Under the pieces are notes generated by a model. The model was not told where the DNA came from and made no database searches. It saw nothing but the letters and a program-made list of their open reading frames with translations. A program made the translations under genes and the position numbers. Below are positions 29,692 through 46,216 of a stretch of DNA of 64,000 bases, in pieces (position 1 is the stretch's first letter; every line of letters begins with the position of its first letter). Source of the stretch: Candidatus Omnitrophica bacterium UBA6215 (lineage in GTDB: Bacteria > Omnitrophota > Gorgyraeia > Pluralincolimonadales > Pluralincolimonadaceae); contig DISH01000004.1 in NCBI GenBank assembly GCA_002421665.1, forward strand, positions 152,025 to 216,024, in the 5' to 3' direction.

Positions 29692-30101
29692 TATCTTACA
29701 CGGATAGATTAAGGGAAAAAGGGCTTAAGCTGACCCCTCGCAGGAAAGCGATAATCTCCCTTTTTGAGGATTGTAAAAGCCATTTGACGGCCGAAGAAGC
29801 ATGGAAAAGGCTGAAAAGGAAATTCGACCGTTGCGGTCTTCCCGGTGTCTATCGCAACCTGGAAAGCCTTGTCTATTGCGGGATCCTGACGAGGGTCCAG
29901 CAGTTTGACCGGAGGAAGCATTATGGGTTATGCACGGCTGAACACGGCAGGCACCACCACCACATTGTATGCGTAAAATGCGGCAAGGTAGAAGAAATGC
30001 CGGGTTGCGGTTTTGCAGGTAAGAAAAAGATAAAGGGATATACGGTGGTCAGCCATTATATGCAGGTCAACGGTGTCTGCGGCAGCTGTTCTGAAAAATA
30101 A
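29688..30101 (+). CDS. zur: Fur-family metalloregulator, probably Zur
   Basis: KLTPRRKAIISLF DNA-binding helix, HHHH and CVKCGK...CGSC metal sites; ATGA overlap with the VIT1 gene; directly upstream of znuACB. Confidence 0.75.
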   Translation: MISYTDRLREKGLKLTPRRKAIISLFEDCKSHLTAEEAWKRLKRKFDRCGLPGVYRNLESLVYCGILTRVQQFDRRKHYGLCTAEHGRHHHHIVCVKCGKVEEMPGCGFAGKKKIKGYTVVSHYMQVNGVCGSCSEK

Positions 30102-30159
30102 TTTTTTGCCATTATACAGAAATTATTTCCATTTATACCCAAAGACCAGGAGGTGCCAT

Positions 30160-31101
30160 ATGTTAAGGCGTGCTGTTGCCTGCGCGTTGTTTGCGCTGGT
30201 GCTCTTTGTCCCTGCCGCTTCCGCCAGGGACAGCAAGGGGAATCTCGAAGTGGTTACTACCTTATTCCCTACGTATGATTTTGCCAGGCAAGTAGGAGGG
30301 GACAAGGTTGATGTCACATTACTGCTGCCGCCCGGGGTGGAGCCGCATACCTTTGAACCGAAACCGCAGGATGTGGTAAGGATCAATAAGGCGGATGTGT
30401 TCATTTATACCGGAAGGTATATGGAACCTTGGGCAGAGAACCTGATCAAAGGCCTTTCGGACAAAGGCCCGGAAATAGTCGACGCAAGCTCCGGCATTAA
30501 ACTGATGGACGAGGAAGACGAGGAAGACGAGGAAGACGAGGAAGAACACGGCCATCACCACCACGGGGGTAAAGACCCTCATATTTGGCTTGACCTCGGG
30601 AACGCACAAATAATGGTTGAGACCATTGCCGGGGCATTCGCCGGAAAAGATCCTGCCAACGGGGCTTATTACCTGAAGAATGCCGGGGAGTATAATGCGA
30701 AACTGGCGGACCTCGACAGGCGGTATAAAGAGACGCTTGCCAAGGCGAAATATAAGACTATAATATATGGCGGGCATTTCGCTTTCGGGTATTTTGCCAG
30801 GAGATACGGCCTGGAGCATGATTCGCCCTATGAGGGTTTTTCCCCGAACGCCGAACCCAGCCCGAAGGCGATCGCGGAACTGATCAAAAAACTCAGGGAG
30901 TCGGGGGTAAAATATATCTATTACGAGGAATTGCTCGATCCGAAGGTGGCCAGGACCATATCGCAGGAGACGGGTGCGAAGCTTGAGTTGCTACATGGCG
31001 CGCACAATGTCTCGAAGGACGAGCTTAAGGCGGGAGTGACTTACATCAGTATAATGGAAGATAACCTGAATAAACTTAAAGTGGGGTTGGAGTGCCGGTA
31101 A
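30160..31101 (+). CDS. znuA: zinc ABC transporter substrate-binding protein ZnuA
   Basis: Signal peptide, cluster-9 SBP fold, acidic/His-rich loop DEEDEEDEEDEEEHGHHHHGG; GGAGG RBS before ATG 30160. Confidence 0.88.
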   Translation: MLRRAVACALFALVLFVPAASARDSKGNLEVVTTLFPTYDFARQVGGDKVDVTLLLPPGVEPHTFEPKPQDVVRINKADVFIYTGRYMEPWAENLIKGLSDKGPEIVDASSGIKLMDEEDEEDEEDEEEHGHHHHGGKDPHIWLDLGNAQIMVETIAGAFAGKDPANGAYYLKNAGEYNAKLADLDRRYKETLAKAKYKTIIYGGHFAFGYFARRYGLEHDSPYEGFSPNAEPSPKAIAELIKKLRESGVKYIYYEELLDPKVARTISQETGAKLELLHGAHNVSKDELKAGVTYISIMEDNLNKLKVGLECR

Positions 31102-31760
31102 AGATAGTCGAGATAAAGAATGTCAGTGTCCGTTACGGCGGAGTAGAGGCCCTTTCCGGGGTCACTATCGATGTCGAGGCGGGCGATTATGTAGGGATAG
31201 TCGGTCCCAACGGCTCAGGCAAGACGACATTGGTCAGGGCAATACTGGGTCTTGTGCCGTTCGAAGGGAAGATCCTTTTTGGCGGGGGCAGGCGCTTATT
31301 CGAATTCACATCAGGCCAGCATATCGGATACCTGCCCCAGAAGATGTCGTCTTTGGACCAGCGTTTCCCGGCTACCGCGATGGAGATAGTCGTCTCCGGG
31401 GTATATTGCTGCAAGCGTTTTCCCAAGCGCCTTACGCATGAGGACTACATGGCTGCGGGAGAGGCCATGAAGGCGCTTGGCGTCGAAGATCTCGCCGGAC
31501 GCAATATCGGGAAACTTTCCGGGGGTCAGCAGCAGCGCGTACTGCTGGCAAGGGCATTGGTCCACCACCCGAGGTTATTGATACTTGATGAGCCTACCGT
31601 CGCGCTCGACTCGCGCTCGAGAGAATCGTTCTACTCTACCGTCGAATACCTCAATAAGCAGCAGGGCGTTACCGTAATTATAGTTTCACATGACCTCGAT
31701 ACGGTGCGCAAATATGCGACCAAGATCATACACCTGGACAGGGAGGTACTGGCGGCATGA
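31092..31760 (+). CDS. znuC: zinc ABC transporter ATP-binding protein ZnuC
   Basis: Walker A GPNGSGKTT, signature LSGGQQQR, Walker B LILDEP. Confidence 0.9.
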   Translation: MPVKIVEIKNVSVRYGGVEALSGVTIDVEAGDYVGIVGPNGSGKTTLVRAILGLVPFEGKILFGGGRRLFEFTSGQHIGYLPQKMSSLDQRFPATAMEIVVSGVYCCKRFPKRLTHEDYMAAGEAMKALGVEDLAGRNIGKLSGGQQQRVLLARALVHHPRLLILDEPTVALDSRSRESFYSTVEYLNKQQGVTVIIVSHDLDTVRKYATKIIHLDREVLAA

Positions 31761-32581
31761 CGGAATTATTGGGACAGGTCAGGGAAGCCGTCCAGTACGG
31801 GTTCGTCCAGCGCGCGGTGATCGCGGGTTGCTTTATGGCCCTCGGGTGTTCTTTCCTGGGGGTATTTCTTGTCCTGCGCAGGTTCTCGCTTATAGGCGAC
31901 GGTCTGGCCCACGTAAGTTTTGCGACCGTGGCTATAGGTCTGCTCTTGCACGCGCAGCCGATGGTCGTTTCCATACCGTTGGTGGCGCTTGCGTCATTGG
32001 CGATACTGGAGCTCAACGAGAAAGCGAAGGTATACGGCGACGCTGCCATAGGGCTCGTGTCATCGTTCGGTATCGCCCTTGGCGTGATCATCGCTTCCAC
32101 GGCCGGGGGGTTCAATGTCGACCTTTTCAGCTACCTTTTTGGAAATATCCTTTCGGTGAGTTCCTTCGAGGTACGCTTGACCGCGGCGATCTCCGTGATC
32201 GTGGTCCTTGTTACGGTATTGTTCTACCATGACCTGTTCTCCATAACTTTCGATGAGGATTACGCTCGGGTGACCGGCATCAAGGTCAGGGCTGTCAATA
32301 AGCTGTTGATCGTGCTGACCTCGCTTGTGATCGTTCTGGGGATAAAGATAGTCGGGACCATGCTTGTCTCGAGCCTTATCATCCTGCCGGCCATATCGGC
32401 GTTGCAGGTAGTGCGCAGCTTCAGGGCGACGATAGCGCTTGCAGGGATATTTGCCGTCCTATCTGTGTTGATCGGGATCTTTGTTTCGTATGTGCTAAAT
32501 TATCCTTCCGGGGCTACTATTGTAATGGTGAATTTCGTGTTTTTTATCGGGTCCTTTCTTTATGGCAAGATCAAAGGTTAA
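31757..32581 (+). CDS. znuB: zinc ABC transporter permease ZnuB
   Basis: 274 aa, eight-TM ABC-3 family permease. Confidence 0.88.
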   Translation: MTELLGQVREAVQYGFVQRAVIAGCFMALGCSFLGVFLVLRRFSLIGDGLAHVSFATVAIGLLLHAQPMVVSIPLVALASLAILELNEKAKVYGDAAIGLVSSFGIALGVIIASTAGGFNVDLFSYLFGNILSVSSFEVRLTAAISVIVVLVTVLFYHDLFSITFDEDYARVTGIKVRAVNKLLIVLTSLVIVLGIKIVGTMLVSSLIILPAISALQVVRSFRATIALAGIFAVLSVLIGIFVSYVLNYPSGATIVMVNFVFFIGSFLYGKIKG

Positions 32582-33752
32582 GGTTTTCGATCTGCTGCTT
32601 ATCCTTTTACTGGGCCTTCTGGTACGCCTGATCCCCCTATTTAACGCCATAGATTGGACGGATCTTTACGGGCGGCAGGCGATGCCCATACTCGACCACC
32701 TTAATATTTACAGCTCAACAAAAAGGGTTTTTCCGTATTCGCCTGTTTCTATGTTCCTGCCGGCCGGATGCGCGATATTATCCACCGCGCTGGAGATTCC
32801 GTTCTATATGATCATGAGGTTGCCGGGCATTATCGCGGACATATGCATCGGATTGTCGTTATATTTAACACTGGCCGGTGCCGGCAAGGAGAGGGCGGCT
32901 CTTTTCGCGGGATTACTCTACGTCCTGAACCCGGTATCGATATTGATATCCTCCTTCCACGGTAATGTCATGCCTATTGCGGTATTGTTCTCGTTCCTGG
33001 CATATACGGTATTGTTGAAAGGAGAGGAAGAGAATTACAGGTTGTCCGCGCTGCTTTTGGGGCTGGCTATCGGCTTCCGGGGCTACCCGGCGCTCCTCCT
33101 GCCGCTGTTCCTTATTAAGTTGAGACTTCCCGTAAGCAAGAAGGTAAAATATGTCCTCTATTCAACCATTCCTACGGCGTTATCATTCGTGCCGTTCCTG
33201 CTTTTGGACTACAGGTCGGTTTTTAGAGAAGTATTTTCATATACGGGTTTCCCGGACTACGGGCTGGGCGCTTTGTTAAGGGCGTTCTATTCACTGCAAA
33301 ATTTTGACATTTTCGTCAATTTTCCCGGAGGATTACTGCCCAGGCTTTTGATCTATACAAAAGCGTTATTTATCGTTATCTATATATTGATATTGGTTTT
33401 TGCGCGAAGGAAGAGGCTGGTATCATTAGTGCTTGCGGTTTTCCTGGCGTTCTATTGCGTATATTCCGGCATCTCATCACAATACCTAATTTGGTTGCTG
33501 CCGTTCGCTTTCCTGGCGGGGGACAGGATGTTGAAATACTACATAATAATCGCCGCGTGGGCGATGGTCAATTTCTATTATTTATATCATCCCTACATAA
33601 TTTTCGGTAAAGTATCAATGACGAATATGCCGCTCGTTGGTTTATTGAAAGGGCAGATAATTTCGCTGGGCCTGCTTTGGCTGGTGTGCGCGGTATGGCT
33701 GGTCCTTATCCTGGCCGAAAAAGGCCGGGTGGCCGGGCGGGATCTTTTATGA
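32562..33752 (+). CDS. GT87/DUF2029-like membrane glycosyltransferase
   Basis: 396 aa polytopic protein; the conserved early periplasmic loop of the DUF2029 pattern. Confidence 0.45.
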   Translation: MARSKVKVFDLLLILLLGLLVRLIPLFNAIDWTDLYGRQAMPILDHLNIYSSTKRVFPYSPVSMFLPAGCAILSTALEIPFYMIMRLPGIIADICIGLSLYLTLAGAGKERAALFAGLLYVLNPVSILISSFHGNVMPIAVLFSFLAYTVLLKGEEENYRLSALLLGLAIGFRGYPALLLPLFLIKLRLPVSKKVKYVLYSTIPTALSFVPFLLLDYRSVFREVFSYTGFPDYGLGALLRAFYSLQNFDIFVNFPGGLLPRLLIYTKALFIVIYILILVFARRKRLVSLVLAVFLAFYCVYSGISSQYLIWLLPFAFLAGDRMLKYYIIIAAWAMVNFYYLYHPYIIFGKVSMTNMPLVGLLKGQIISLGLLWLVCAVWLVLILAEKGRVAGRDLL

Positions 33753-34111
33753 GGAGGCGGGCGGATGTTCATCAGGTATATTAGGTCATTACGGTTATCG
33801 GAGAAAGCGATCATGAGTTTCTTTCTTATCCTTTATTTCGTTGAGATAGCGTATATCTTGACGATGGCTAAATGAATGTATTGTGATAGAATAGTTGCCG
33901 ATGGGAGAGAAGAGAGTATTAGGGTTTAGGGACATTACGCTTTCCGTCTTCTACTCGATATTCGGCCTTGAAGCGATATCGGCTTCGGCGGCTATCGGGA
34001 ATTCGGGAATAAATGGGCCGCCAGAGGCATATGGTTTTATCGGATATCCCTTAGTTATCGGGGAGGTAATTGTCAGGAGAGTCCGCGCGCAAAATTAAAA
34101 AGGAGATTGAC

Positions 34112-34411
34112 ATGCCGGAATTCGGGACAGCGTTATCGGGATTGGCAAAGGACAGGAAATTGACCAAGGCAGAACTGATAAGGGCCATACGTTTCATGGT
34201 CGCGGCGGAATACGAGGCCATCCAGCTGTACATGCAGCTTGCCGAATCCACCGACGATAAACTGGCACAGGAAGTCCTCAAGGATATCGCGGATGAGGAG
34301 AGGGTGCATGCCGGGGAGTTCCTGAGGTTGTTAAAGGAACTGGCTCCCGATGAGCAGAAATTCTACGATGAGGGAGCGGGAGAAGTGGAAGAAGAAATAA
34401 GGAAAAAATAA
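34112..34411 (+). CDS. small ferritin-like diiron protein (EncFtn-like fold)
   Basis: AAEYEAIQLYMQLAE...DEERVHAGEFLRLL matches the E..Y / EExxH half-ferritin pattern; ATG 34112 with AAGGAGA RBS; no encapsulin shell gene nearby. Confidence 0.6.
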   Translation: MPEFGTALSGLAKDRKLTKAELIRAIRFMVAAEYEAIQLYMQLAESTDDKLAQEVLKDIADEERVHAGEFLRLLKELAPDEQKFYDEGAGEVEEEIRKK

Positions 34412-34433
34412 AAGGTAATCGGGATTATTTATA

Positions 34434-35708
34434 GTGTGGACTAAATTTATTCGAGGTTTGCTATCGGAAAAAACAGACCGATATGTTTTTAATAGATGTT
34501 CCCGGGATGACAAGGATTATTCAAATTGCCGGGCAATAGACCTTTATGTTCATATACCTTTTTGTAAAGGTTCATGCCGGTATTGCCCCTATATAACCCA
34601 ACCATTCGATCTGAATTCATCGAAGCTTTACCGGGATGCTTTAGTTTCGGAACTGGGGCATTATGCGGACCTGCTAAAGGATAAGCCCGTCGGTTCCTTG
34701 TACATCGGCGGAGGCACCCCGACGTTAGATCTAAGTTTGGTCGGCGATTTGCTAAAGCACTTGAGACAAATAGTCACACCAAGCGGGCCGATTGCTATTG
34801 AAACGACCCCCAGCGATATATCCTGTTCCAAGATCGATGAATTGAAAAAGTTGGGCATCGATTACATAAGCCTGGGCGTCCAAAGTTTCAATCCCGGATA
34901 TCTGGCGTTGTTAGGGCGGAATTATGAAGCGGAAGACGCAGGAAAAGCGCTTAGCGAATTGATGGAGTCGGGCCTAAGCCTGGTCAACGCCGATATGATC
35001 TTCGCTTTTCCCGGTCAAACGCTGCGTGAATTCATGGAAGACCTGGGTAAGCTTATGCAATGGTCGCCTCACCAGGTGACATGTTACCCGCTCTTTACTT
35101 TCCCGTATTCTTCCGTTGGGCGGTTCATGAGGCTCAAGAGGCTAAAAATGCCCGATGTTTTTGTACGCAGGAAAATGTATTATGAAATGACCGGTTATTT
35201 TCAAAAGTGCGGTTATAAGCAAACATCCGTTTGGTCATTCACAAAGAACGAAAATAGGCACAATTATTCATCGGTGACCCGTGACCACTATCTGGGATTG
35301 GGGGTAGGAGCCGGTAGTTATACGGGGAAAGGGTTTTATTTCAATACATTCTCGACAAAAGAATATATGGACAAAGCGGCATACCGGCGTCCGACGGCGA
35401 TCAAGATGGATATCACCGAAAGGATGGAAAAGCTTTTCTGGCTTTACTGGCGTTTTTACGAAACGGAGATAAATGCGGTGCGTTACCATAGCCGTTTCAA
35501 CAACGGTATTGACGAGGATTTCGGCAGGATGCTGTGGACGGTCGAGAAGATGGGCATGCTTAGGTTGGACGGGGCTCGATCCAGGATATTGAACGAGCGG
35601 GGCGCTTTCTGGATACACTTATTGCAAAATTATTTCGCGCTCAATTACGTGAATAGGGTTTGGACCGCGGGATTAGCCGACCCCTGGCCCGAAAGAATAA
35701 GGTTATAA
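34434..35708 (+). CDS. HemN/HemW-like radical SAM protein (coproporphyrinogen-III oxidase family)
   Basis: CKGSCRYC radical-SAM CxxxCxxC motif, GGGTPT glycine-rich motif, HemN C-terminal domain; GTG start. Confidence 0.75.
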   Translation: MWTKFIRGLLSEKTDRYVFNRCSRDDKDYSNCRAIDLYVHIPFCKGSCRYCPYITQPFDLNSSKLYRDALVSELGHYADLLKDKPVGSLYIGGGTPTLDLSLVGDLLKHLRQIVTPSGPIAIETTPSDISCSKIDELKKLGIDYISLGVQSFNPGYLALLGRNYEAEDAGKALSELMESGLSLVNADMIFAFPGQTLREFMEDLGKLMQWSPHQVTCYPLFTFPYSSVGRFMRLKRLKMPDVFVRRKMYYEMTGYFQKCGYKQTSVWSFTKNENRHNYSSVTRDHYLGLGVGAGSYTGKGFYFNTFSTKEYMDKAAYRRPTAIKMDITERMEKLFWLYWRFYETEINAVRYHSRFNNGIDEDFGRMLWTVEKMGMLRLDGARSRILNERGAFWIHLLQNYFALNYVNRVWTAGLADPWPERIRL

Positions 35709-36604
35709 TGTTGAACAAACTTGCTTATTATGCGAAGTGGTACTATCTGTGCCGCATAAGGAACCGGAAAATACCTCTTAACAGTTCTCTTATTCTGACC
35801 GATCAATGTAATTTAAAATGTAAACATTGCACCGTATCCGGGCTGGGATACCCGGCGAGAAGCTTCCGGGAGGTTACTGGAGATGTCCGAAAATTATATG
35901 ACCTCGGGTCCAGGGTCCTGGTCATTACAGGCGGGGAGCCATACGTTTGGGCCGATAAGGAATATACGGTAGAAGACATCGTCCGATTTGCAAAAACGGT
36001 TGGATTCTTCCGCGTCGTCATCTGCACGAACGGGACTTATGACCTGCGGTCATCGGCGGATTATCTGTGGGTCAGCCTCGACGGTTTCAGCTTACAGCAT
36101 ACGAACTTGAGGGGGGATGTGTATGAACGGGTGGTGCGGAACATAGAACAGAGCCGGCACGGAAGTATATATATAAATTTCACCATCAGCCGTGAAAATC
36201 ATGATATATTCGAAGAAGCCGCCGAAGAGATATTGAAAATAAGGAATATACGCGGTATCTTATTTCATATTTTTACCCCTTATAAAGGTTCGGACCCGGA
36301 CTTGAAGCTCACTGCCGAAGAGAAGGACCGGGTTTTGGGCCGTTTGTTAAAAATAAAAAGAAAGCATCCTGTTAGGATATTCAATACGTTTGACGGATTA
36401 AGAGCGATGCGGTCTAAGGATTGGGACAGGCCCATCTGGGCAAGCATTGTCAGCAACCGGGGCCAGATCGGTCCGTGCTGCTGCCGAGAGGGCATATATG
36501 ACAAAGAAATATGTGAAGAATGCGGGTGCACTCCGGCAGTCGAAACATATGTTCTGCAGGAGGGGAAGGTCCTTGCCGGCATGGAAAATTTGAGGTTCAT
36601 TTAA
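35708..36604 (+). CDS. radical SAM protein with Cys-rich (SPASM-like) C-terminus
   Basis: CNLKCKHC motif; C-terminal CCCREG...CEECGC cluster; 1-nt TAATG overlap with the upstream radical-SAM gene. Confidence 0.7.
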   Translation: MLNKLAYYAKWYYLCRIRNRKIPLNSSLILTDQCNLKCKHCTVSGLGYPARSFREVTGDVRKLYDLGSRVLVITGGEPYVWADKEYTVEDIVRFAKTVGFFRVVICTNGTYDLRSSADYLWVSLDGFSLQHTNLRGDVYERVVRNIEQSRHGSIYINFTISRENHDIFEEAAEEILKIRNIRGILFHIFTPYKGSDPDLKLTAEEKDRVLGRLLKIKRKHPVRIFNTFDGLRAMRSKDWDRPIWASIVSNRGQIGPCCCREGIYDKEICEECGCTPAVETYVLQEGKVLAGMENLRFI

Positions 36605-37044
36605 TAATTAGGAAGGTAAGTATAAACTATTTTTGGAAGAGGTATAGCATATCATGAAGCGGGATGTCAAATTGATTTACATACGCACATTCGGCTGACC
36701 GATGGAAGCAGTATTATACGACTATTCTGACGTATCTGAGCAATATCTGGTAAGCGGAACTCGTTGAACTATTGAAGGTTAAGGAAGGCAACAGGGATTA
36801 ACAAGGATAAAACAGGATTTGGCAAAAGAAGGCGAGAAAAAAGTCTGAGTTTACAAAGTAAACTTAGCTAACGCATCAGAAATAAAATTCGATAGGTTAG
36901 AAAAGTTTATTAAGAGTAGAAATACTCCTGGGGTTTAATTACTCGAGAGAATGTAGGACATAATTTGGGGTGGATAAGTTCGTATCAGCAATGCATAAAC
37001 TAAATAGAGTCAGTATAGGTATATGGGAATGAGAGGGAGTAGAA

Positions 37045-39135
37045 ATGTATTTAAAAAGCCTAAAAATAATTAATTTTAGAAAATTTGGAGAATTGAACAA
37101 TGTTGTGGAATTTGTAGGCTCAAAAGGTGCCCAACCAAAAACTGAGGGAATTAACATAGCTTTATCTACAACTTTAATTGTGGGGAAAAACAATTCTGGT
37201 AAAACAACAGTAACAGAAGCGCTAAAGAGACTAATTCACGACAGAAAATTTAAAGCAAATGACTTTAATTTCATGTATTTAAACACGCTGCTTGAGGAAT
37301 ACAAAAAAGGCAAATTTGAACGTTTTCCAAAACTCGAGTTTGAAATCACTGTAAGGATTGATTTTAGCAGCGATTCCGACTTGGTTACAAATATTGCTCC
37401 ATTCATGAGTATAGAAGGCGTGGCGTCAGCAGGCAAGAAAAGCGATTTTCAAGTTCTCATGAAATATGAAATAAAAGAAGAGACAAGTTTTGAGGACGAA
37501 GTCCTGTCTATTATTGGAAAGTATAAAGATGAAACATTATTGTTTCGGAAATTTTTGGAACTCATTACCAATACTGAGTTCGAATTTAATTACTATAATT
37601 CAGAAGATGTGTTGATAGAAGATAATAAATTCAAGATTAGTGATTTGTTGGAAATCAAAGTAATTAATGCTAACAAAGATATTCATGGGAACTGTTTGTC
37701 TAATATTTTTAATAGGATAATTAAGCTGCTTTGCACGAGCGGGAACAAACCGGTTGTTCCTGATGGTATAGCTTCCGAGATAGATAAAATTAATAAGACG
37801 ATAACAAAAAAAGTGTCAGCGCCGCACGCTACGACTGTCAACAGAGCATTGAGTAAAATTGAGTCAAGTGACCACATGGAAGTTAACTTAAGGCCAGATT
37901 TAACTTTTGATAATATTCTTTCAACAATTATCCGATATGAATATAAAGAAGGGAAATTTCATATCCCCGAAGGACAGTTTGGTCTTGGGTACTCGAACCT
38001 CATGATGATTATTGGAGAACTGATTGAGTACATTGAGAAGTATCCTAAGCAGGAGCACCACAGTAAGATTAATTTGATTTGCATAGAAGAGCCGGAAGCT
38101 TTCATGCACTGTCAGATGCAGGAATTATTCATAAAGCATATTAATGATGCTGTTGATTTTCTCTTGAAGGATAGAGAGAAAGAAATTAACAGTCAGCTAA
38201 TAGTGACGACGCATTCCCCTCATATCTTAAATAGCAAGATTCATAGTGGAAATACTTTTGACAATATAAGTTATAGTACCATTGTCGATGATTTCGCAAA
38301 TGTTGTTAATCTGAATGATGTCAACGTAATGGGGGATAAGTCTGCTGATGAGGGAAAAGGTGATGTGGCGGCAGAAAAGAAAACCGCTGATGACCTTAAG
38401 TTCCTAAAGAAACACATCAAATACAAAGTGTCGGAGCTGTTCTTTTCTGATGCGGTAATCTTTGTTGAAGGAGTGACAGAAGAAACACTGCTATCTTATT
38501 ATATTGACAAAGACAAAACATTAAATCGTTATTACATTTCAGTCTTTAACATTAATGGCTCACACGGTCTTGTTTATCACCCACTGATAAAGCTTCTTAA
38601 AGTTCCCAATCTAATCATAACCGACTTTGATATAAGAAGAGAAGAGAAAGAAAAAGATGACTGCCTTCAAATCAAAGACCTAAAAGATAGGGAGACTACA
38701 AATAAAACCATTGCCAAATATAATCCTGACAAAGAAAAAATCGGAAATCTTAAAGGATATTTCGAAGATGAAAACATATATGTAATATTTCAGCGTGAAG
38801 CCATCGAAGGATATTATGCGACTAGCTTTGAGGAAGCATTTATTCTCACTAACTATAATAACGACATACTGAATAACGCTTTATCTGTTGTAAAACCTGG
38901 AGTCTATAAAAAAATCAGTGGGGAGCCAATAGATAGAAATAGGCTCAAGGACGCATCCTATAAGTTGCAAAGCAGCCTTTCTAAAAGCAAAAGCGACTTT
39001 TCAAATGAGCTGCTATACGAAATCGTAGTTAGCGAAGATGCAGGAGCCATACCGAAACCGCCGAAATACATAACAGACGGGTTGGTGTGGTTGACTCGTT
39101 CCGTTAAGAAGCAAGCAAAAGGGGGGAATAAATAA
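37045..39135 (+). CDS. gajA: OLD-family ATP-dependent endonuclease (ABC ATPase + Toprim), GajA-like
   Basis: 696 aa; KSLKIINFRKF start, Walker A GKNNSGKTT, Walker B/D-loop LICIEEPEAFMH, H-loop QLIVTTHSPHIL, Toprim motifs VIFVEGVTEETLL and LIITDFDIRRE; GAGGGAG RBS. Confidence 0.85.
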   Translation: MYLKSLKIINFRKFGELNNVVEFVGSKGAQPKTEGINIALSTTLIVGKNNSGKTTVTEALKRLIHDRKFKANDFNFMYLNTLLEEYKKGKFERFPKLEFEITVRIDFSSDSDLVTNIAPFMSIEGVASAGKKSDFQVLMKYEIKEETSFEDEVLSIIGKYKDETLLFRKFLELITNTEFEFNYYNSEDVLIEDNKFKISDLLEIKVINANKDIHGNCLSNIFNRIIKLLCTSGNKPVVPDGIASEIDKINKTITKKVSAPHATTVNRALSKIESSDHMEVNLRPDLTFDNILSTIIRYEYKEGKFHIPEGQFGLGYSNLMMIIGELIEYIEKYPKQEHHSKINLICIEEPEAFMHCQMQELFIKHINDAVDFLLKDREKEINSQLIVTTHSPHILNSKIHSGNTFDNISYSTIVDDFANVVNLNDVNVMGDKSADEGKGDVAAEKKTADDLKFLKKHIKYKVSELFFSDAVIFVEGVTEETLLSYYIDKDKTLNRYYISVFNINGSHGLVYHPLIKLLKVPNLIITDFDIRREEKEKDDCLQIKDLKDRETTNKTIAKYNPDKEKIGNLKGYFEDENIYVIFQREAIEGYYATSFEEAFILTNYNNDILNNALSVVKPGVYKKISGEPIDRNRLKDASYKLQSSLSKSKSDFSNELLYEIVVSEDAGAIPKPPKYITDGLVWLTRSVKKQAKGGNK

Positions 39136-41507
39136 TGAGCCTATCAAAAATATCCCCTACTTCCGAGAAGGAAGAGCTCGCTGTTCAAGACCTCGTTAAT
39201 TCATATATTGACAGGAACGAAAGCCTTGTTTTTAGCGCAGGAGCAGGAGCAGGAAAGACTTATGCCTTAACTGAGAGCTTAAAACATATCGTAAAAGTGC
39301 ACGGCGACAGGCTGGTTAGGCATAACCAAAAAATAATATGTATTACATATACGAATGTCGCAACAAATGAAATCAAAGAGCGTCTTGGCAACTCAGACCT
39401 TGTCAAGGTTTCAACTATTCATGAAAGAGTTTGGGATTTAATTAATGATTATCAAAAGGAGCTTATTAAGATACACGTTGAAAAAATTCAGGAAGATCTT
39501 GTTAAGTTGCAGTTTGACTTGTATGACAGTAACGAGGAAAAAGAAGAAAGCTTGTATAAGGCTTACCGGGGGCTTTCAGATAGCGAAAAAGCTGAATTTA
39601 AAAGCATGATGATTGCTAAAAAGAAAGAGTTTTACAGATTTTACGATAAGCCTGCTAAAGAATTTAAGTTTGCAATGGGAGATTTTATTGGTGGATATGC
39701 GAGCCTTTTGAGCAATGTTGCAAATTTTAAGAAAACAGTAAGTATAATTTATAAGATTGAGAATTATAAAGAGTGTCTGGGGAAAATCAATGAAGGACAT
39801 GCGAAATACGCTGAGGTTAAATATGACGACAGATATAATTTTGACGTCCTTCATCGAATGATAATAAGTCACGATACGCTTCTTGAGTATGCTCTTAAGA
39901 TGATTAAGACTTATGATTTGTTGAAGCGTGTTATATTTGATAGTTATCCGTACATTCTCATAGACGAATACCAAGACACTAATCAAAACGTAGTTGAAAT
40001 AATGAAACTTATTGAAGATCACGCAAAGAGCATTAAGCGCAAACTTTTTGTGGGTTATTTCGGTGATTCAGCACAAAACATCTACGAAGACGGAGTAGGG
40101 AGTGGCCTTGTCAATATTCATCCAGAATTAAAGGGCGTGAATAAACAATTCAATCGCAGGTCTCATTCAGAAATAATCGATGTCATAAATAAAATCAGGA
40201 ATGATGAAATAAAACAGAAGTCCATATTTGAGGATTGTACTGGCGGAAGTATTGAGTTTTACGCCGGAACGAATGAAGTTAAACATCTATTCATCGAAGA
40301 ATACAGAAAAAAGTGGAATATCAACTCAGAAAATAAACTTCATTGTTTGGTTTTACTGAATAAATTTGTCGCAGAATTCAATGGCTTTCCCGATATATAC
40401 AGATGTTTTGCAGATACTTCTTATTACAAAATAAACTATGACCGCCTAAACAATGAAATACTCAGCAATGATCTATCCAAGCTGGGAGACATCCCAAACC
40501 TATTCTATAGAGTTCTCAAATTCATTGACAACTTAAATAACCTTAATACTTCTGTTGCCAACATAGTCGATAAGGAAACCTATTCCAGAATGACGTTTCT
40601 CAAAATAAAAGAGCTTACCACTATATTCAAGAACCTCAAAGGTGTTACTTTAGGAGAGTATATAAAAGACATATTTGAAAAATACAGCAATTCTGACAAT
40701 AACTATTATAAAAAAGTCATTCAAAAACTGATTGGCATTGAATATTACTCATATCACGATTTTACAAATTACCTCCTTGACGAATTGTTTTTCAATATAG
40801 GAAACGGAAGGTGGGAAGAATTCAAGCTTACGGTTGTTGAATTGACACAGAATGATTTATCTGCAAAGACAGACGAAAAGGAATTTAAGCCATTTAAGCT
40901 AAAATTGGACAATTTTCTTTCTGGAGAATATTTTTCTTATCTCGACATTCAGGAAGTAAACGCCTTTAAACAAAGGCTCGTTGAGTTCATAAAAGAACAA
41001 AAAATAACAAGCATAAAAACCAAAGATATGGACTCTTTCATGGAAAAATTGGACCAAACATTTCAAAATGAAATAATAGCCCTAATAGATAAAGATGAGG
41101 TTGAAGTCGCTAAAACAAAACTCGATGAACTCCTAAACATAAAATTAGACCAGTGGAAAATCTGGTACGATTTCATAAACAATAAACAAAAATCCGAGAT
41201 TGAGTACCATACCTATCATGGAACAAAAGGCGCCGAATACGATAACGTCATAATCATTATGGAAAACGATTTTGGGCGAATGAATAAAGATAAATTCTCA
41301 TCTTTTTTCAAGCATTACAAAAATCCTGATTCTTTACTTGAAGAAGACAGAGTTAAGTTTAATAATACAAAAAACTTGTTATACGTATCTTGTTCCCGCG
41401 CAATTAAAAACTTAAGGATTTTATATCTTGACGATATATCTGAATTTCGAGAAGGAATAGAACATATTTTTGGAACAGTAAACCCTTATAAACCAAACTT
41501 AATCTAA
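39135..41507 (+). CDS. gajB: UvrD-like superfamily 1 helicase, GajB-like
   Basis: 790 aa; Walker A AGAGAGKTY, motif II YILIDEYQDTNQ, motif III FGDSAQNIYE, motif VI-like YHTYHGTKGAEYDNVIII; start overlaps the gajA-like stop (TAATG). Confidence 0.85.
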   Translation: MSLSKISPTSEKEELAVQDLVNSYIDRNESLVFSAGAGAGKTYALTESLKHIVKVHGDRLVRHNQKIICITYTNVATNEIKERLGNSDLVKVSTIHERVWDLINDYQKELIKIHVEKIQEDLVKLQFDLYDSNEEKEESLYKAYRGLSDSEKAEFKSMMIAKKKEFYRFYDKPAKEFKFAMGDFIGGYASLLSNVANFKKTVSIIYKIENYKECLGKINEGHAKYAEVKYDDRYNFDVLHRMIISHDTLLEYALKMIKTYDLLKRVIFDSYPYILIDEYQDTNQNVVEIMKLIEDHAKSIKRKLFVGYFGDSAQNIYEDGVGSGLVNIHPELKGVNKQFNRRSHSEIIDVINKIRNDEIKQKSIFEDCTGGSIEFYAGTNEVKHLFIEEYRKKWNINSENKLHCLVLLNKFVAEFNGFPDIYRCFADTSYYKINYDRLNNEILSNDLSKLGDIPNLFYRVLKFIDNLNNLNTSVANIVDKETYSRMTFLKIKELTTIFKNLKGVTLGEYIKDIFEKYSNSDNNYYKKVIQKLIGIEYYSYHDFTNYLLDELFFNIGNGRWEEFKLTVVELTQNDLSAKTDEKEFKPFKLKLDNFLSGEYFSYLDIQEVNAFKQRLVEFIKEQKITSIKTKDMDSFMEKLDQTFQNEIIALIDKDEVEVAKTKLDELLNIKLDQWKIWYDFINNKQKSEIEYHTYHGTKGAEYDNVIIIMENDFGRMNKDKFSSFFKHYKNPDSLLEEDRVKFNNTKNLLYVSCSRAIKNLRILYLDDISEFREGIEHIFGTVNPYKPNLI

Positions 41508-41540
41508 AGGAGATGCCCATGGGCGGTTTTAAAAAAGGAT

Positions 41541-41894
41541 TTGGACGGCAGCGAAGAGCAATGGCGATATGAAAGATTTATCGAGATAATATTTGAAGCA
41601 GATAAAAAGTGTTTAGAACAGCATATAGAGGAACGAAGACTCAAAGAACAGGCGATAGATAACCAAATCAGAAAGGTTGATGCAAAACATTTTCAGAAAT
41701 GCGCGCAGTGGTCAGGCAAAAAATACAACCTAACGCAAACAGCGAGAATTTTAAGGGTGCATCGGCAGACGTTATATCATTGGATTAAGAAGGGTTGGTG
41801 CAAACCGAAACGTGATTACAGGAATTATCCTGTTTTTACAGTTTTAGACATTGAAAACCTGATGAAGTGGAGAAACACGATAAAATCGGGATGA
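41541..41894 (+). CDS. small HTH_17 (AlpA/excisionase/MerR-type) DNA-binding protein; TTG start
   Basis: C-terminal helix-turn-helix NLTQTARILRVHRQTLYHWIKKGW; AT-rich codon usage like the island; only a TTG start is available in frame. Confidence 0.5.
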   Translation: MDGSEEQWRYERFIEIIFEADKKCLEQHIEERRLKEQAIDNQIRKVDAKHFQKCAQWSGKKYNLTQTARILRVHRQTLYHWIKKGWCKPKRDYRNYPVFTVLDIENLMKWRNTIKSG

Positions 41895-41981
41895 AAAAGC
41901 ATCAAAAACGCCTTTTAGTCGTATACATTCATCTACTTAGACAGTTTTAGACACTTGGGCGTAATATCATAAGGCACTAGT

Positions 41982-44051
41982 ATGAAAGAAGATAAGAAAA
42001 AAATTTACCTTCGCAGTTTTGGATGCCAGATGAACTTCCGTGATTCCGAAGAGATCGCCGGGCTCATGATGGAAAAGGGCTGGGAGCTTACGGATTCCCC
42101 GGAAGAAGCCGATGCCGCTATATTCAATACGTGCGCCGTGCGCAAGCACGCGGAGGACCGCGCGATCAGCAATGTCGGGGCGCTTGCACCTTTCAAAAAG
42201 AAACGTCCCCGGCTGGTGATAGGCGTTGTCGGCTGCATGGCCAAGGCTCATGGCAGGAATATCATCGACAGGGTACCGATAGTGGATTTTATCGCCGGGC
42301 CGGCAAATATCTATGACATCCCGGCGGCGGTTGACGCTATCATGGCGCGGAGGAAAGACCCGGTCATCTCGACGGACAAGGTCTCGCGTCCGTATATCGG
42401 AAATATCGCCTACCATAATCCCGGCATAAGCGCGCTGGTTACTATCATGGAAGGGTGTAATAACTTCTGCTCGTATTGCATCGTGCCTTATGTCAGGGGC
42501 CGTGAAGTCGGAAGGCCCGCGGATGACATAATAGACGAGATAAAGGCGCTCGCCGATAAAGGGTACAAAGAAGTGACCTTGCTGGGGCAAAATGTTAATT
42601 CATACGCGGATAAGAGCGGAGTGTCCCTAAATGACACGTCCCAAAGTGGCACGTCCCCTTTTACGCGGTTGCTGGAGAGGATCAATGGGATAGAGGGGAT
42701 AGAGCGAGTCCGCTTCCTTACCAGCCACCCGAAGGACGCAAGCGAGGCGCTCTTCAAGGCGATGAGGGACCTGCCGAAGGTATGCGAACATCTCCATTTG
42801 CCCTTGCAGTCGGGTTCTGATAAAATATTAAAGTCGATGAACAGGGGCTATACAGCCTCGGAATACCTGAAGAAAGTCGAACTGCTGCGCAAGTATGTGG
42901 CGGATTGCGCTCTGACAACGGATATAATAGTCGGGTACCCGGGTGAATCGGATGAGGATTTTCGCATGACCGAAAAGGTGATGCGGGAGGCCGGGTTCAA
43001 TTCGGCATTTATATTCAAATACTCTCCGCGCCCTCCGGCTAAGGCGAGCGGGTTCGATGATGATGTGCCGAAGAAGGTAAAAGAGGAGCGCAACCAGGCG
43101 TTGCTCAGGTTAAGGGATAAGATGTCGAGTGCACTCGACAGGGAATTCATAGGCGGTGAGACCGAGGTCCTTGTGGAACAGATATGCAGAAAGGAAAAGC
43201 ATAAAGTGTCCGGACGCAACAGGCAGAACATCAAGGTTGTCTTTGAAGGCGGCAGAGCGCTTATAGGAGCCATAAAAAAGGTGAAGGTATCTTCCGTTGT
43301 CGGCCATACGCTAGCGGGAACGGCGCTGCTGGCGCTATTGGCGGCCGGGTTGCCTTTGATGCCCGCCGCGGCGGAGACCATAGACGAATATTTCGTGAGC
43401 GGCGATTACGAGAATACCGTCAGGGAAGGCGTAAAGCTTGTGCAATCATACAAGGAGAAGGATAAGCTTTATTACATGATCGGCACAAGTCTCAATAAAC
43501 TGGGCCGCTATGACCTCGCCAGGAAGAATTTCAATATACTTATGGATACGGCCCCAAAGAGCAGGTTTGCGCCGTTGGCCCAATTGGGTATAGCCGACAG
43601 TTACTACCTGAGCTCGGACTACAAGAATGCCAGGGCCTGCTATGAAAAATATCTTTCAAAGTACCCGAAATCGGAGGGGGGAGCGGTCGCTTATTTCAGG
43701 CTGGCAAAATGCGCCCAAAAAGAAGGTAACTGGCAGTCGGCGAGGAATTATTACCAGAAAGTAAAGAGCGAATACCCGATGAGTTTTGAAGCTCAGACGG
43801 CCTCGGATGCGCTCAGGGACGAGATACTTTTCTTTACGGTACAGGTCGGCTCATTCAATAAGAAGGCAAATGCCCTCAGGTTATGCGATGAACTTGTCAA
43901 GAAGGGTTATGACGCCTCTATTGTGAAATCGAGCGGTGACGCGGAAGAATCTTATAAGGTAAGGGTCGGCAGGCTCGGCGACAGGGATTCGGCGGAAGCG
44001 CTGGCCAAGAAATTGAGGGCCGAAGGCCTTCCAACGAAAGTCCTTCCGTAA
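41982..44051 (+). CDS. miaB: tRNA-i6A37 methylthiotransferase MiaB with unusual C-terminal TM-TPR-SPOR extension (or in-frame fused/nested second gene from ~43281)
   Basis: MTTase N-domain, radical-SAM CNNFCSYC motif and TRAM domain occupy residues ~1-440; the frame then continues through a hydrophobic helix (LAGTALLALLAAGLPLMPAAA), TPR repeats and a SPOR domain (FTVQVGSF...YKVRVGRLGD) to 44051. An in-frame REP insert lies at 42619-42658. Confidence 0.8.
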   Translation: MKEDKKKIYLRSFGCQMNFRDSEEIAGLMMEKGWELTDSPEEADAAIFNTCAVRKHAEDRAISNVGALAPFKKKRPRLVIGVVGCMAKAHGRNIIDRVPIVDFIAGPANIYDIPAAVDAIMARRKDPVISTDKVSRPYIGNIAYHNPGISALVTIMEGCNNFCSYCIVPYVRGREVGRPADDIIDEIKALADKGYKEVTLLGQNVNSYADKSGVSLNDTSQSGTSPFTRLLERINGIEGIERVRFLTSHPKDASEALFKAMRDLPKVCEHLHLPLQSGSDKILKSMNRGYTASEYLKKVELLRKYVADCALTTDIIVGYPGESDEDFRMTEKVMREAGFNSAFIFKYSPRPPAKASGFDDDVPKKVKEERNQALLRLRDKMSSALDREFIGGETEVLVEQICRKEKHKVSGRNRQNIKVVFEGGRALIGAIKKVKVSSVVGHTLAGTALLALLAAGLPLMPAAAETIDEYFVSGDYENTVREGVKLVQSYKEKDKLYYMIGTSLNKLGRYDLARKNFNILMDTAPKSRFAPLAQLGIADSYYLSSDYKNARACYEKYLSKYPKSEGGAVAYFRLAKCAQKEGNWQSARNYYQKVKSEYPMSFEAQTASDALRDEILFFTVQVGSFNKKANALRLCDELVKKGYDASIVKSSGDAEESYKVRVGRLGDRDSAEALAKKLRAEGLPTKVLP
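42619..42658 (-). repeat. REP-like 40 bp element embedded in-frame in miaB
   Basis: GAGTGTCCCTAAATGACACGTCCCAAAGTGGCACGTCCCC, same family as 8255-8294; translated as VSLNDTSQSGTSP inside the MiaB loop between NSY and FTRLL. Confidence 0.8.
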
Positions 44052-44054
44052 TTT

Positions 44055-44972
44055 ATGGCTGACAGGATAATCTTTATCGTAGGCCCCACCGCAATAGGCA
44101 AGACCGGCTTGTCTTTTGAGCTGGCCCGTATCATAGACTGCGAGATAATCTCCTGTGATTCAATGCAGGTCTATAAGAGGATGGATATCGGGACGTCGAA
44201 ACCCGCCGCGATGCTGCTTAATGCGCTGCCCCACCACCTGATAAATGTAGTCGAGCCCTCCGAAGAATTTTCCGTGGCTCAATACCGCGAGCTGGCAGTT
44301 AAGGCGATCGAGGGCATAATATCAAGGAAGAAGACGCCGCTGGTGGTCGGCGGAAGCGGCCTTTACGCGAAGGTGCTTATAGACGGGATATTCGAAGCGC
44401 CGGTTACCGACAGGCGGCTCAGGGAGTCCCTGCAGGAAGAGGCAGAGGAGTTCGGCCCGGAAGCCCTGCACAAGCGGCTGGCCGGGGTGGACCCGCAGGC
44501 TGCGGCTAAGATACACGTGAATGACCTTCGAAGGATAATAAGGGCCATCGAGGTATACGAGAAAGCGAAAGAGCCTATATCCGAGCTGCAGAAAAAGACC
44601 TCGGGCCTGGGGGAGAGATATGATGTCAGGATATTCGGCCTTACTATGGAACGAGCGGCGTTATACAGGAAGATAGATGAAAGGGTGGATCTCATGTTCT
44701 CCGGAGGGCTGGTAGGCGAAGCCGAGGCACTTATGGCCGGAAAGCTGAGCCTGACGGCTTCGCAGGCGCTCGGATATAAGGAGATATTCGGCTATCTCGC
44801 CGGCGAATACGGTCTGGAAGAAGCCAAGAGGCTTGTAAAGAGGGACACCCGCCGTTTCGCGAAACGCCAGCTTACATGGTTCAGGGGGGACGAGCGCGTG
44901 GAATGGATCGAGCTTGATGAAAATTTTGATACGGAGGCGGTCGCAAGGGATATATGGAAAAAGCTCTCTTAG
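44055..44972 (+). CDS. miaA: tRNA dimethylallyltransferase
   Basis: [11 protein letters not shown]-loop, SCDSMQVY motif; 305 aa. Confidence 0.93.
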
Positions 44973-46216
44973 TAACGGTCGAGTTCTTCGATAAAGCGTA
45001 TAAAGATTCCTGGAAACTCGATGACATAAATTTTGAACTTCGCGAATTGGTTAAGTCCGCGGGCCTCCAGGTCGTAGACCTGGTAGAATGTTTCAAAGAC
45101 AAACCGGCGCCGGGGCACTATATAGGTAAAGGCAAAGCAGGCGAGATAAAACTTATATGCAGGGACAAGGGCGCTGATGTTGTTATTTTTGGCGATGACC
45201 TTTCGCCGACACAACAGCAGAACCTCGAAGAAGAGATAGGCCTGAAGGTAATAGACAGGACGCAGTTGATCCTAGACATATTTGCCGGCAGGGCGCATTC
45301 CGCCGAGGGCAAGGTACAGGTCGAGCTTGCCCAACTCCAATACCTTCTGCCCAGGTTGAAAGGAAAAGGCGTCATGCTTTCAAGATTGGGCGGAGGGATC
45401 GGCACCAGGGGCCCCGGCGAGCAGAAGCTGGAGATGGACCGCCGCAAGATAAGGGAGAAGATCTCGAGGCTCAAGGAAAGCCTTTCTAAGATACATGAAC
45501 GCAGGGAGGGGCTTCGCAGGAAACGCCGCGAGGGAGAGGTTGCTATAATATCCCTCGTCGGTTATACAAACGCTGGAAAGTCAACCCTGCTCAATGCTCT
45601 CACCGATTCCGAAGTACTTTCACAGGACAGGCTCTTTTCCACACTGGACCCTACCGCGCGCCGGCTGGTGCTCCCGAACAACCAGAAGGCGGTATTCGTG
45701 GATACAGTCGGCTTCCTCCACAGATTGCCGCACCATCTTATCGAGGCCTTTAAGGCGACCCTGGAAGAGGCCGCGGAAGCGGATATGCTCATACATGTCC
45801 TTGACGCTTCAAGCCCGATAATATACGAAATGAACCAGGCCGTGCATGAGGTCCTGGAGGAGCTCGATATCCGGGACAAGACGGTCATAACGGTCCTCAA
45901 TAAGATCGACAGGGTTGAGGATATGGCCGTAATTAACCGGCTCCTCAGGGAGTTCGACAATTCGATCGCCATATCGGCCCTGAACAGACAGAACCTCGAA
46001 GAGTTAGTACAGCGCATCTCCATGATACTCTTTGCCTCGCTGGTATACGTAAAAGCCGCCATACCCCAGTCCGAAGGCAAACTCCTGAGCCAGATATATA
46101 AGGAGTCCAGTATAATAAGCCGCGACTTCAAGGGGGAGCATGTCTACATTGAAGCTGACATGCCTATACGTTTAAAAAATTTACTTGACAAAAGAGGTTT
46201 TTGTGATAAACTTTGA
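44954..46216 (+). CDS. hflX: GTPase HflX
   Basis: HflX N-domain and G-domain motifs [18 protein letters not shown]. Confidence 0.9.

Follow-up and report, generated by a model that had tools for sequence, protein, structure and literature searches.

Within the 64,000-nucleotide (nt) stretch of Candidatus Omnitrophica bacterium UBA6215 analysed here (contig DISH01000004.1, hereafter the window), the gene for the tRNA-modifying Fe-S enzyme MiaB has no stop codon after the TRAM domain and runs on in frame through a hydrophobic segment into a module of TPR repeats and a SPOR domain. This open reading frame (ORF) of 689 amino acids (aa) is almost certainly a genuine, lineage-wide fusion in a clade of Candidatus Omnitrophota, and not an error or the cover of a hidden second gene. 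The fusion is well supported, recurrent and lineage-specific, was previously unremarked, and carries an internal signal peptide. Its product is predicted, with moderate confidence for the statement as a whole, to be one polypeptide whose MiaB part stays cytoplasmic and whose TPR-SPOR part is exported and probably cut off by signal peptidase I.

All coordinates are positions in the window on the forward strand (Table 1). The original prediction had described a single 689-aa frame leading from MiaB through a hydrophobic stretch to TPR repeats and a SPOR domain, and the ORF and its domain matches bear this out: Pfam places UPF0004 at residues 7-106, Radical_SAM at 154-330, TPR families at about 490-610 and SPOR at 618-682. 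The conserved strand GHTLAG occupies residues 441-446, and the hydrophobic stretch ending in AAAET, which had been noted after the TRAM-like segment, was found at residues 447-466 (447-464 for the stretch, then E465-T466). The AlphaFold2 (AF2) model of the 689-aa protein has a mean predicted local distance difference test score (pLDDT) of 87.8; it is confident for MiaB up to the last strand (443-448) and for the TPR (467-613) and SPOR (618-688) parts, and the low-confidence residues 451-463 (pLDDT <50) form the sole linker between these confident modules. The genes miaA, hflX, hrcA, grpE and dnaK follow in this order, which is kept in fused, split and miaB-lost relatives.

The continuity and the conservation of the frame were observed directly. 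An identical 689-aa protein is present on 14-18 contigs of up to ~500 kb from NCBI, JGI, ENA and Logan assemblies, and a search with the full-length protein returned ~27 clusters defined at 90% identity (P0014, P0170-P0195), which are 59-100% identical to the query, cover 98-100% of it in most cases and come from Candidatus Omnitrophota wherever the source names an organism. Related loci were fetched by aligning the C-terminal module (a 256-aa query), and each was tested for frame continuity. MiaB and TPR-SPOR share one open frame in the window and in loci L009, L011-L020, L027-L032, L034, L035 and L037, with the C-terminal module 61-100% and MiaB 57-97% identical to those of the window. The 16 distinct fused loci differ at many synonymous sites around the junction yet keep the frame open. 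The check for a missed stop or frameshift near the junction found no stop missing and the identical ORF in many assemblies; among orthologues, close relatives have the continuous ORF and distant ones a separate TPR-SPOR gene after miaB. The first of the two readings offered by the original prediction, a true fusion in which a membrane segment separates cytoplasmic MiaB from TPR-SPOR in the periplasm, is thus supported by close relatives with the same continuous ORF and a conserved junction. Three of the fetched loci (L012, L014 and L020, close copies from GTDB representative metagenome-assembled genomes, MAGs) are titled 'uncultured Planctomycetia bacterium', the others all being Candidatus Omnitrophota; these titles are probably taxonomic mislabels of co-assembled bins.

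Table 1. Features of the fused miaB locus and its neighbours in the window
Feature	Position	Strand	Basis or remark
Fused ORF	41982..44051	+	689 aa; stop TAA 44049-44051; zero in-frame stops before it
MiaB module (aa 1-446)	41982..43319	+	UPF0004, radical SAM core and TRAM-like beta domain; ends with the conserved GHTLAG strand
Hydrophobic segment TALLALLAAGLPLMPAAA (aa 447-464)	43320..43373	+	Hydropathy; -3/-1 rule; signal peptide of split relatives in the equivalent place
Predicted signal peptidase I site	A464 (43371-43373) / E465 (43374-43376)	+	A-A-A/E-T motif
TPR domain (~aa 467-613), CpoB/YbgF-like and BamD-like	43380..43820	+	Pfam; PDB matches; AF2 helices
SPOR domain (aa 618-688), predicted peptidoglycan-binding module	43833..44045	+	PF05036; PDB match; AF2
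AGGAG (43265-43269) with in-frame GTG (43281-43283)	43265..43283	+	Candidate internal start, without conservation in relatives
miaA (IPP transferase)	44055..44972	+	Starts 3 nt after the fused ORF
GajA	37045-39135	+	PADLOC PDLC00065, E 5.5e-200
GajB	39135-41507	+	PADLOC PDLC00128, E 2.2e-262
Small MerR/HTH_17 (excisionase-like) ORF	41541-41894	+	After GajB

The origin of the fusion from a split gene pair can be read from more distant relatives. In split loci L041-L045, L047-L049, L052, L054-L057, L064 and L065, the C-terminal module is 29-42% identical to that of the window, miaB and the TPR-SPOR gene lie in different frames, and the stop of miaB and the start of its neighbour overlap or adjoin (ATGA, TGATG). 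The split TPR-SPOR protein begins with MKK or MRR followed by a hydrophobic (h-) region and A-x-A, a textbook signal peptide, for example MRKFFPIFLFSMLGAWLSSAVLYA/E, where the slash marks the predicted cut. All states have miaA next, as far as downstream sequence was recovered. A neighbour-joining tree of the C-terminal module groups the close fused loci in a single clade, in which the MiaB tail GHTLxG leads directly into the h-region; stop, start and Lys/Arg n-region have all been removed. In P0259, a member of a different fused lineage, the MiaB tail is followed in frame by ...ALRGKITRQGVPA-MRR-AVALMFF..., and the retained Met-Arg-Arg reads as a direct footprint of stop loss.

Fused forms were also found outside the main clade (P0016, P0018, P0020, P0028, P0198/P0207, P0200/P0227, P0206 with 44 member sequences, and P0245). 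P0018 (L107) has a TRAM domain and is followed by miaA and hflX; P0016 (L108), P0020, P0028, P0198/P0207, P0200/P0227, P0206 and P0245 are fusions without TRAM, in which MiaB stops after the radical SAM domain. The four forms placed in the tree (P0016, P0018, P0020 and P0028) lie among split loci, so fusion or fission happened several times. A third state is seen in L003-L008/L038 and L010/L021, which are nested in the fused clade beside the fused L019 and L034 and have no miaB upstream at the locus; an MBOAT gene precedes TPR-SPOR in one case, and in the other the preceding gene is unrelated and 379 aa long. The TPR-SPOR gene of L003 begins ...NIGKLK-M-VKISSIFCHTLVG..., with its ATG at the position of a Thr codon in L019, and that of L010 begins with a remnant of the MiaB tail (...FGHTLVG...). 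Since these loci retain a remnant-led TPR-SPOR gene, the C-terminal module persists and is used with no MiaB attached, the segment serving as the core of an N-terminal signal peptide. As far as these comparisons go, the fused and split states interconvert and are probably functionally equivalent.

Loss of TRAM, the presumed tRNA-binding domain, was observed in both split and fused forms: in L047, L048, L052 and L054-L057 as well as in P0016, P0020, P0028, P0198, P0200, P0206 and P0245, MiaB ends at about query residue 385, right behind the radical SAM domain, and these Omnitrophota homologues are still joined to or trailed by TPR-SPOR, and by miaA where the downstream region was recovered. In P0022 (720 aa; member P0169 on 4 contigs), a MiaB without TRAM is fused directly to MiaA with no TPR-SPOR between them, which places two consecutive enzymes of the ms2i6A37 pathway in one chain. 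The predicted proteins P0185 (895 aa), P0269 and P0286 combine MiaB with a GIY-YIG nuclease domain (PF01541), and in P0185 this domain is N-terminal to a full MiaB-TPR-SPOR fusion.

Both halves of the fused ORF carry recognisable domains. The MiaB equivalog model TIGR01574 scores 453.2 bits against a cut-off of 355.3 and matches aa 7-447 over profile positions 1-435 of 437. The structure of Bacteroides uniformis MiaB (7MJV, 457 aa) aligns through its residues 15-453 with residues 3-447 of the query, VKVSSVVGHTLAGT of the query matching VKVTESSSATLKGE of 7MJV 4 residues before the end of the solved protein; because this alignment reaches residue 453/457, the MiaB module is complete to within ~4 residues of its normal C-terminus. 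The motifs FGCQMN, NTCAVR and GCMA, with the three N-terminal Cys of the auxiliary cluster, and CNNFCSYC, with the CxxxCxxC of the radical SAM cluster, are all present, and these six catalytic Cys are intact in every full-length fused ORF. The same structural alignment and the high-confidence AF2 beta strands at 393-448 identify the TRAM domain; Pfam TRAM (PF01938) was unreported for the 689-aa protein at E<=0.01 and was reported for some fused relatives. The usual MiaB is soluble and ends just past TRAM; here, 243 residues follow G446 with no stop. From its family, and in the context of the adjoining miaA, the module is predicted to convert i6A37 to ms2i6A37.

The TPR part is matched by Pfam TPR_6, TPR_2, TPR_12 and YfiO and by the Protein Data Bank (PDB) structures of YbgF (2XEV) and CpoB (6G5S). 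The SPOR domain is matched by PF05036 (aa 618-682, E 4.9e-14, 52.9 bits against a cut-off of 21) and by the SPOR structure of CwlC (PDB 1X60), and AF2 gives it the beta-alpha-beta-beta-alpha-beta fold, with strands at 618-625, 645-652, 655-665 and 686-688 and helices at 628-640 and 668-680. Binding of denuded glycan by this domain is a prediction, and a septal or peptidoglycan-associated periplasmic protein is a reasonable guess for the exported module. One cluster member is named 'TolA-binding protein' by JGI. Membership in CpoB/YbgF was considered and rejected: TIGR02795 (CpoB/YbgF; 63.8 bits for the whole ORF, 65.7 for the C-terminal part, cut-off 90.1) and NF008068 (27.1 and 28.9 bits, cut-off 383) stay below their cut-offs, and there is no N-terminal coiled coil, the AF2 TPR helices starting directly at residue 467. 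BamD membership and a lipoprotein were likewise rejected, as TIGR03302 (BamD; 57.9 and 61.4 bits, cut-off 81.4) also stays below and no lipobox Cys stands at +1 of A-A-A/E-T.

How the fused chain is handled was judged from the segment between the modules. Its best 19-residue Kyte-Doolittle window is 1.82, and the best windows overall are 1.6-2.3. The hydrophobic core is short (~12-14 residues), and Pro, Gly, Asn and Ser come next, before the motif; such a composition is typical of cleaved signals, unlike stable anchors. A conserved cleavage motif was observed in a set of 29 proteins, fused or derived: 28/29 have Ala at -1, 27/29 have Ala or Val at -3, the free position -2 takes A, N, K, R, F, S, T, D or I, Glu predominates at +1, and the predicted site lies 18-20 residues past HTLxG in 27/29. 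An h/c-region of 18-20 residues with small residues at -3 and -1 is what is expected of a Sec signal peptide; the N-terminal, positively charged n-region of such a peptide is missing, 446 MiaB residues preceding the segment, which would have a free N-terminus only if the non-conserved GTG at 43281 (V434) was used. The segment is read here as the h- and c-regions of a former signal peptide that would now act as an internal signal or anchor.

A course of events can be proposed that fits these features. The ancestor had a translationally coupled pair, miaB followed by an exported TPR-SPOR gene with an ordinary signal peptide, and then miaA. Loss of the miaB stop, together with the signal peptide start and its charged n-region, let the last TRAM strand (GHTLxG) run into the old h-region. 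The ORF would be translated as one chain, with MiaB and its two Fe-S cluster sites staying in the cytoplasm, and the 18-residue segment, 446 residues from the N-terminus, would serve as an internal export signal in an N-in/C-out orientation. In this way the CpoB-like TPR and SPOR module (225 residues) would reach the periplasm, its presumed binding partners there being peptidoglycan or components of the division site. Signal peptidase I may then cut after A464, yielding the same soluble periplasmic protein as the split genes, with a predicted mature N-terminus of ETIDEYFVSGDYENTVR after the A464/E465 cut, and leaving MiaB with an 18-residue C-terminal membrane tail. As Ala/Val-x-Ala after the h-region is kept throughout the fused clade, a cut by signal peptidase I is most likely, and the fused chain is, on the strength of this motif, probably cleaved. 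Topology, cleavage and the function of the periplasmic module are thus predicted from sequence.

Several points weigh against this account. Translation, topology and cleavage are all read from the sequences of uncultured organisms, the call of a signal rests on hydropathy and the -3/-1 rule, and the segment is not helical in the AF2 model. It is unusual for an export signal to lie 446 residues into a chain and to lack a charged n-region, and a linker of zero length puts the TRAM domain flush with the membrane, which might hinder tRNA binding. The deep branches of the neighbour-joining tree are weak, which makes the number and direction of fusion and fission events uncertain, and the AGGAG and GTG in this genome provide a possible second route to the exported protein.

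An uncleaved bitopic protein, in which the segment is a permanent anchor that tethers MiaB through the membrane to the periplasmic TPR-SPOR and may bring it to the division septum, is conceivable and is regarded here as a distinctly less probable outcome. It draws on the same ORF evidence as the cleaved chain; the 19-residue hydropathy windows quoted above are enough for a membrane span, and the architecture is retained over ~40% sequence divergence and recurs in other lineages. However, a pure anchor gives no reason for Ala at -1 and Ala/Val at -3 with a free -2, the short core with Gly, Pro and Asn before the motif is typical of cleaved signal peptides, and in relatives that are split or have lost miaB the periplasmic module is made on its own.

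The second reading offered by the original prediction was a nested gene starting at GTG 43281; in this case TPR-SPOR would be made mainly from the GTG behind AGGAG, with an ordinary signal peptide, and the read-through fusion would be a by-product. Both elements exist: the GTG (43281-43283) is in frame (codon 434) and AGGAG stands at 43265-43269, although the spacer is 11 nt and not the 10 nt that had been claimed. The product from this start does begin MKVSS...ET as had been described, its full N-terminus being MKVSSVVGHTLAGTALLALLAAGLPLMPAAA/ET, which resembles a signal peptide. The host uses Shine-Dalgarno sites, with strong 5-mers ahead of 12 of the window's 52 crude gene starts as compared with 3.8% of background windows, and the miaB-lost L003 starts one codon upstream of the equivalent position.

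The start is nevertheless not a conserved feature, as both the codon and the AGGAG vary in relatives. The codon is GTG in, for example, L019 and L035, GTC in L012, L018 and L040, GTA in L032, L020, L037 and L011, and GCG in L009. The AGGAG is part of ATA GGA GCC (Ile-Gly-Ala), which is ATC GGC ATG in L012 (of the fetched relatives with a different junction the closest, at 93% identity over the 256-aa C-terminal query), and AGGAG occurs in no other fused junction. In-frame ATG, GTG and TTG codons were scanned in 16 distinct fused junctions, over a stretch that starts 22 codons ahead of the HTL motif and ends 8 codons past it: none was found in L009 and L032, and L016 and L017 have one only inside the h-region, so that 4/16 junctions are unusable for an n-region. 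A Shine-Dalgarno-like motif precedes a candidate start only in the window, L019 and L034 among these junctions, and in the latter two it is a weak AGGA. The ATG of L003 is a new Thr-to-Met change. A consensus scan gave no promoter-like site and no internal terminator near the junction (43200-43400), the sole upstream promoter-like site relevant to the ORF being at 41938-41967. Internal initiation is thus, as judged from these comparisons, not the conserved way of making the exported module, and a nested gene as the main source of TPR-SPOR in the window is quite improbable.

A slippery heptamer, A_AAA_AAG, was also found in the zero frame at 43274-43280, with AGGAG 4 nt upstream. The same heptamer serves the -1 frameshift site of E. 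coli dnaX, which also has an upstream Shine-Dalgarno-like element. A dnaX-type -1 frameshift was rejected here, the heptamer being A_AAG_AAG in L012 and the -1 frame staying open for ~60 codons (by eye) with no nearby stop; the heptamer is probably a coincidence of Lys-Lys codons.

An artefact or pseudogene (a missed stop, a sequencing or assembly frameshift, or a decaying locus) is barely credible, for although the NCBI pipeline reports just the C-terminal 204-224 aa for two MAGs, as a SPOR/TPR protein of its own, the ORFs of those MAGs are actually continuous, the identical ORF occurs in many independent assemblies, the same frame is kept in loci with many synonymous differences, and purifying selection acts on both halves, the catalytic motifs being intact. 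The two calls concern continuous ORFs of 700-770 aa, of which the gene table gives only the last 224 aa in L009 (JBDRDF010000041.1, 1285-3417) and the last 204 aa in L011 (JAZDOX010000009.1, 57-2387), with no miaB coding sequence in either; the partial calls are named 'SPOR domain-containing protein' or 'tetratricopeptide repeat protein', and other MAGs have the full-length fused ORF named MiaB. The C-terminal-only calls suggest that automated annotators found the locus awkward. In L002, an older assembly of the locus (JGI 3300001592), GajB, hrcA and dnaK are each split in two calls, probably by frameshift errors, and the 689-aa fused ORF is identical and intact despite its split neighbours.

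Directly upstream of the fused gene lies a complete Gabija anti-phage system (37045-41507, forward strand), followed by the small excisionase-like ORF. The genes upstream of miaB differ in relatives; in L108, for instance, an HTH_17 protein and a large serine recombinase abut miaB. The region 5' of miaB thus seems to be variable or prone to insertions. A mobile element was considered as an explanation and rejected, as 31757-36604 gave only an ABC-3 permease and two radical SAM proteins and no tRNA was found over 30000-46000.

MiaB, TPR, SPOR and signal peptides are individually known, and the architecture is already in databases, sometimes under the name 'MiaB'. The literature search found no paper that mentions both MiaB and a SPOR domain, and for Omnitrophota together with SPOR nothing relevant appeared in titles or abstracts. 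A functional link between the two halves has no support so far, nor has a new mechanism. An intact MiaB-TM-TPR-SPOR chain that tethers a tRNA-modifying Fe-S enzyme to peptidoglycan or division-site landmarks is unlikely. If such a tether were real, ms2i6A37 formation, and hence the way in which UNN codons are decoded, would be tied in space or time to septation or to growth of the envelope, and the deep conservation of TPR-SPOR between miaB and miaA and the repeated fusion would reflect a functional link. For annotation, the locus exposes an inconsistency in public MAGs, where the full ORF is called 'MiaB' and the truncated one 'SPOR domain-containing protein', and the comparative evidence favours the long ORF. 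The fusion is also a clean case from nature in which the signal peptide of a downstream gene has become an internal export signal on joining a large cytoplasmic Fe-S enzyme, and the fused, split and miaB-lost states within one phylum make a ready comparative system. If the A-x-A motif is used, signal peptidase I would split the product like a 'polyprotein' in a bacterium and leave a tail-anchored MiaB that would resemble eukaryotic CDKAL1.

Compared with known systems, the fused protein has the UPF0004, radical SAM and TRAM-like modules, the cluster-binding Cys and the adjacent miaA in common with canonical MiaB (7MJV, TIGR01574), but the canonical enzyme is soluble, ~440-460 aa long and ends ~4 residues past the last TRAM strand, whereas here the chain continues for those 243 residues into periplasmic-type domains. 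With the split miaB, TPR-SPOR and miaA operon (L041-L049, L052-L057, L064 and L065), it shares gene order, modules, h-region and A-x-A motif; the split operon has two frames, a stop/start overlap and a Met-Lys/Arg n-region, which are gone in the fused ORF, where the frames are joined. Among CpoB/YbgF and the SPOR proteins FtsN, DamX, DedD and RlpA, the TPR part is nearest to the TPRs of YbgF/CpoB and BamD and the SPOR domain is above the Pfam cut-off, but the combination of TPR and SPOR, with no coiled coil and no lipobox, fits none of these named E. coli proteins. CDKAL1 is a eukaryotic methylthiotransferase anchored in the endoplasmic reticulum by a C-terminal transmembrane segment. The likeness lies in an enzyme of the MiaB/MtaB family held on the cytoplasmic membrane face by a C-terminal hydrophobic segment, whether the MiaB chain is cleaved or not; CDKAL1 differs in belonging to the MtaB (ms2t6A) branch, in being tail-anchored post-translationally, in having no luminal domain and in its unrelated origin. 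By analogy, CDKAL1 would be the nearest functional counterpart of a membrane-tethered methylthiotransferase such as the one predicted here.

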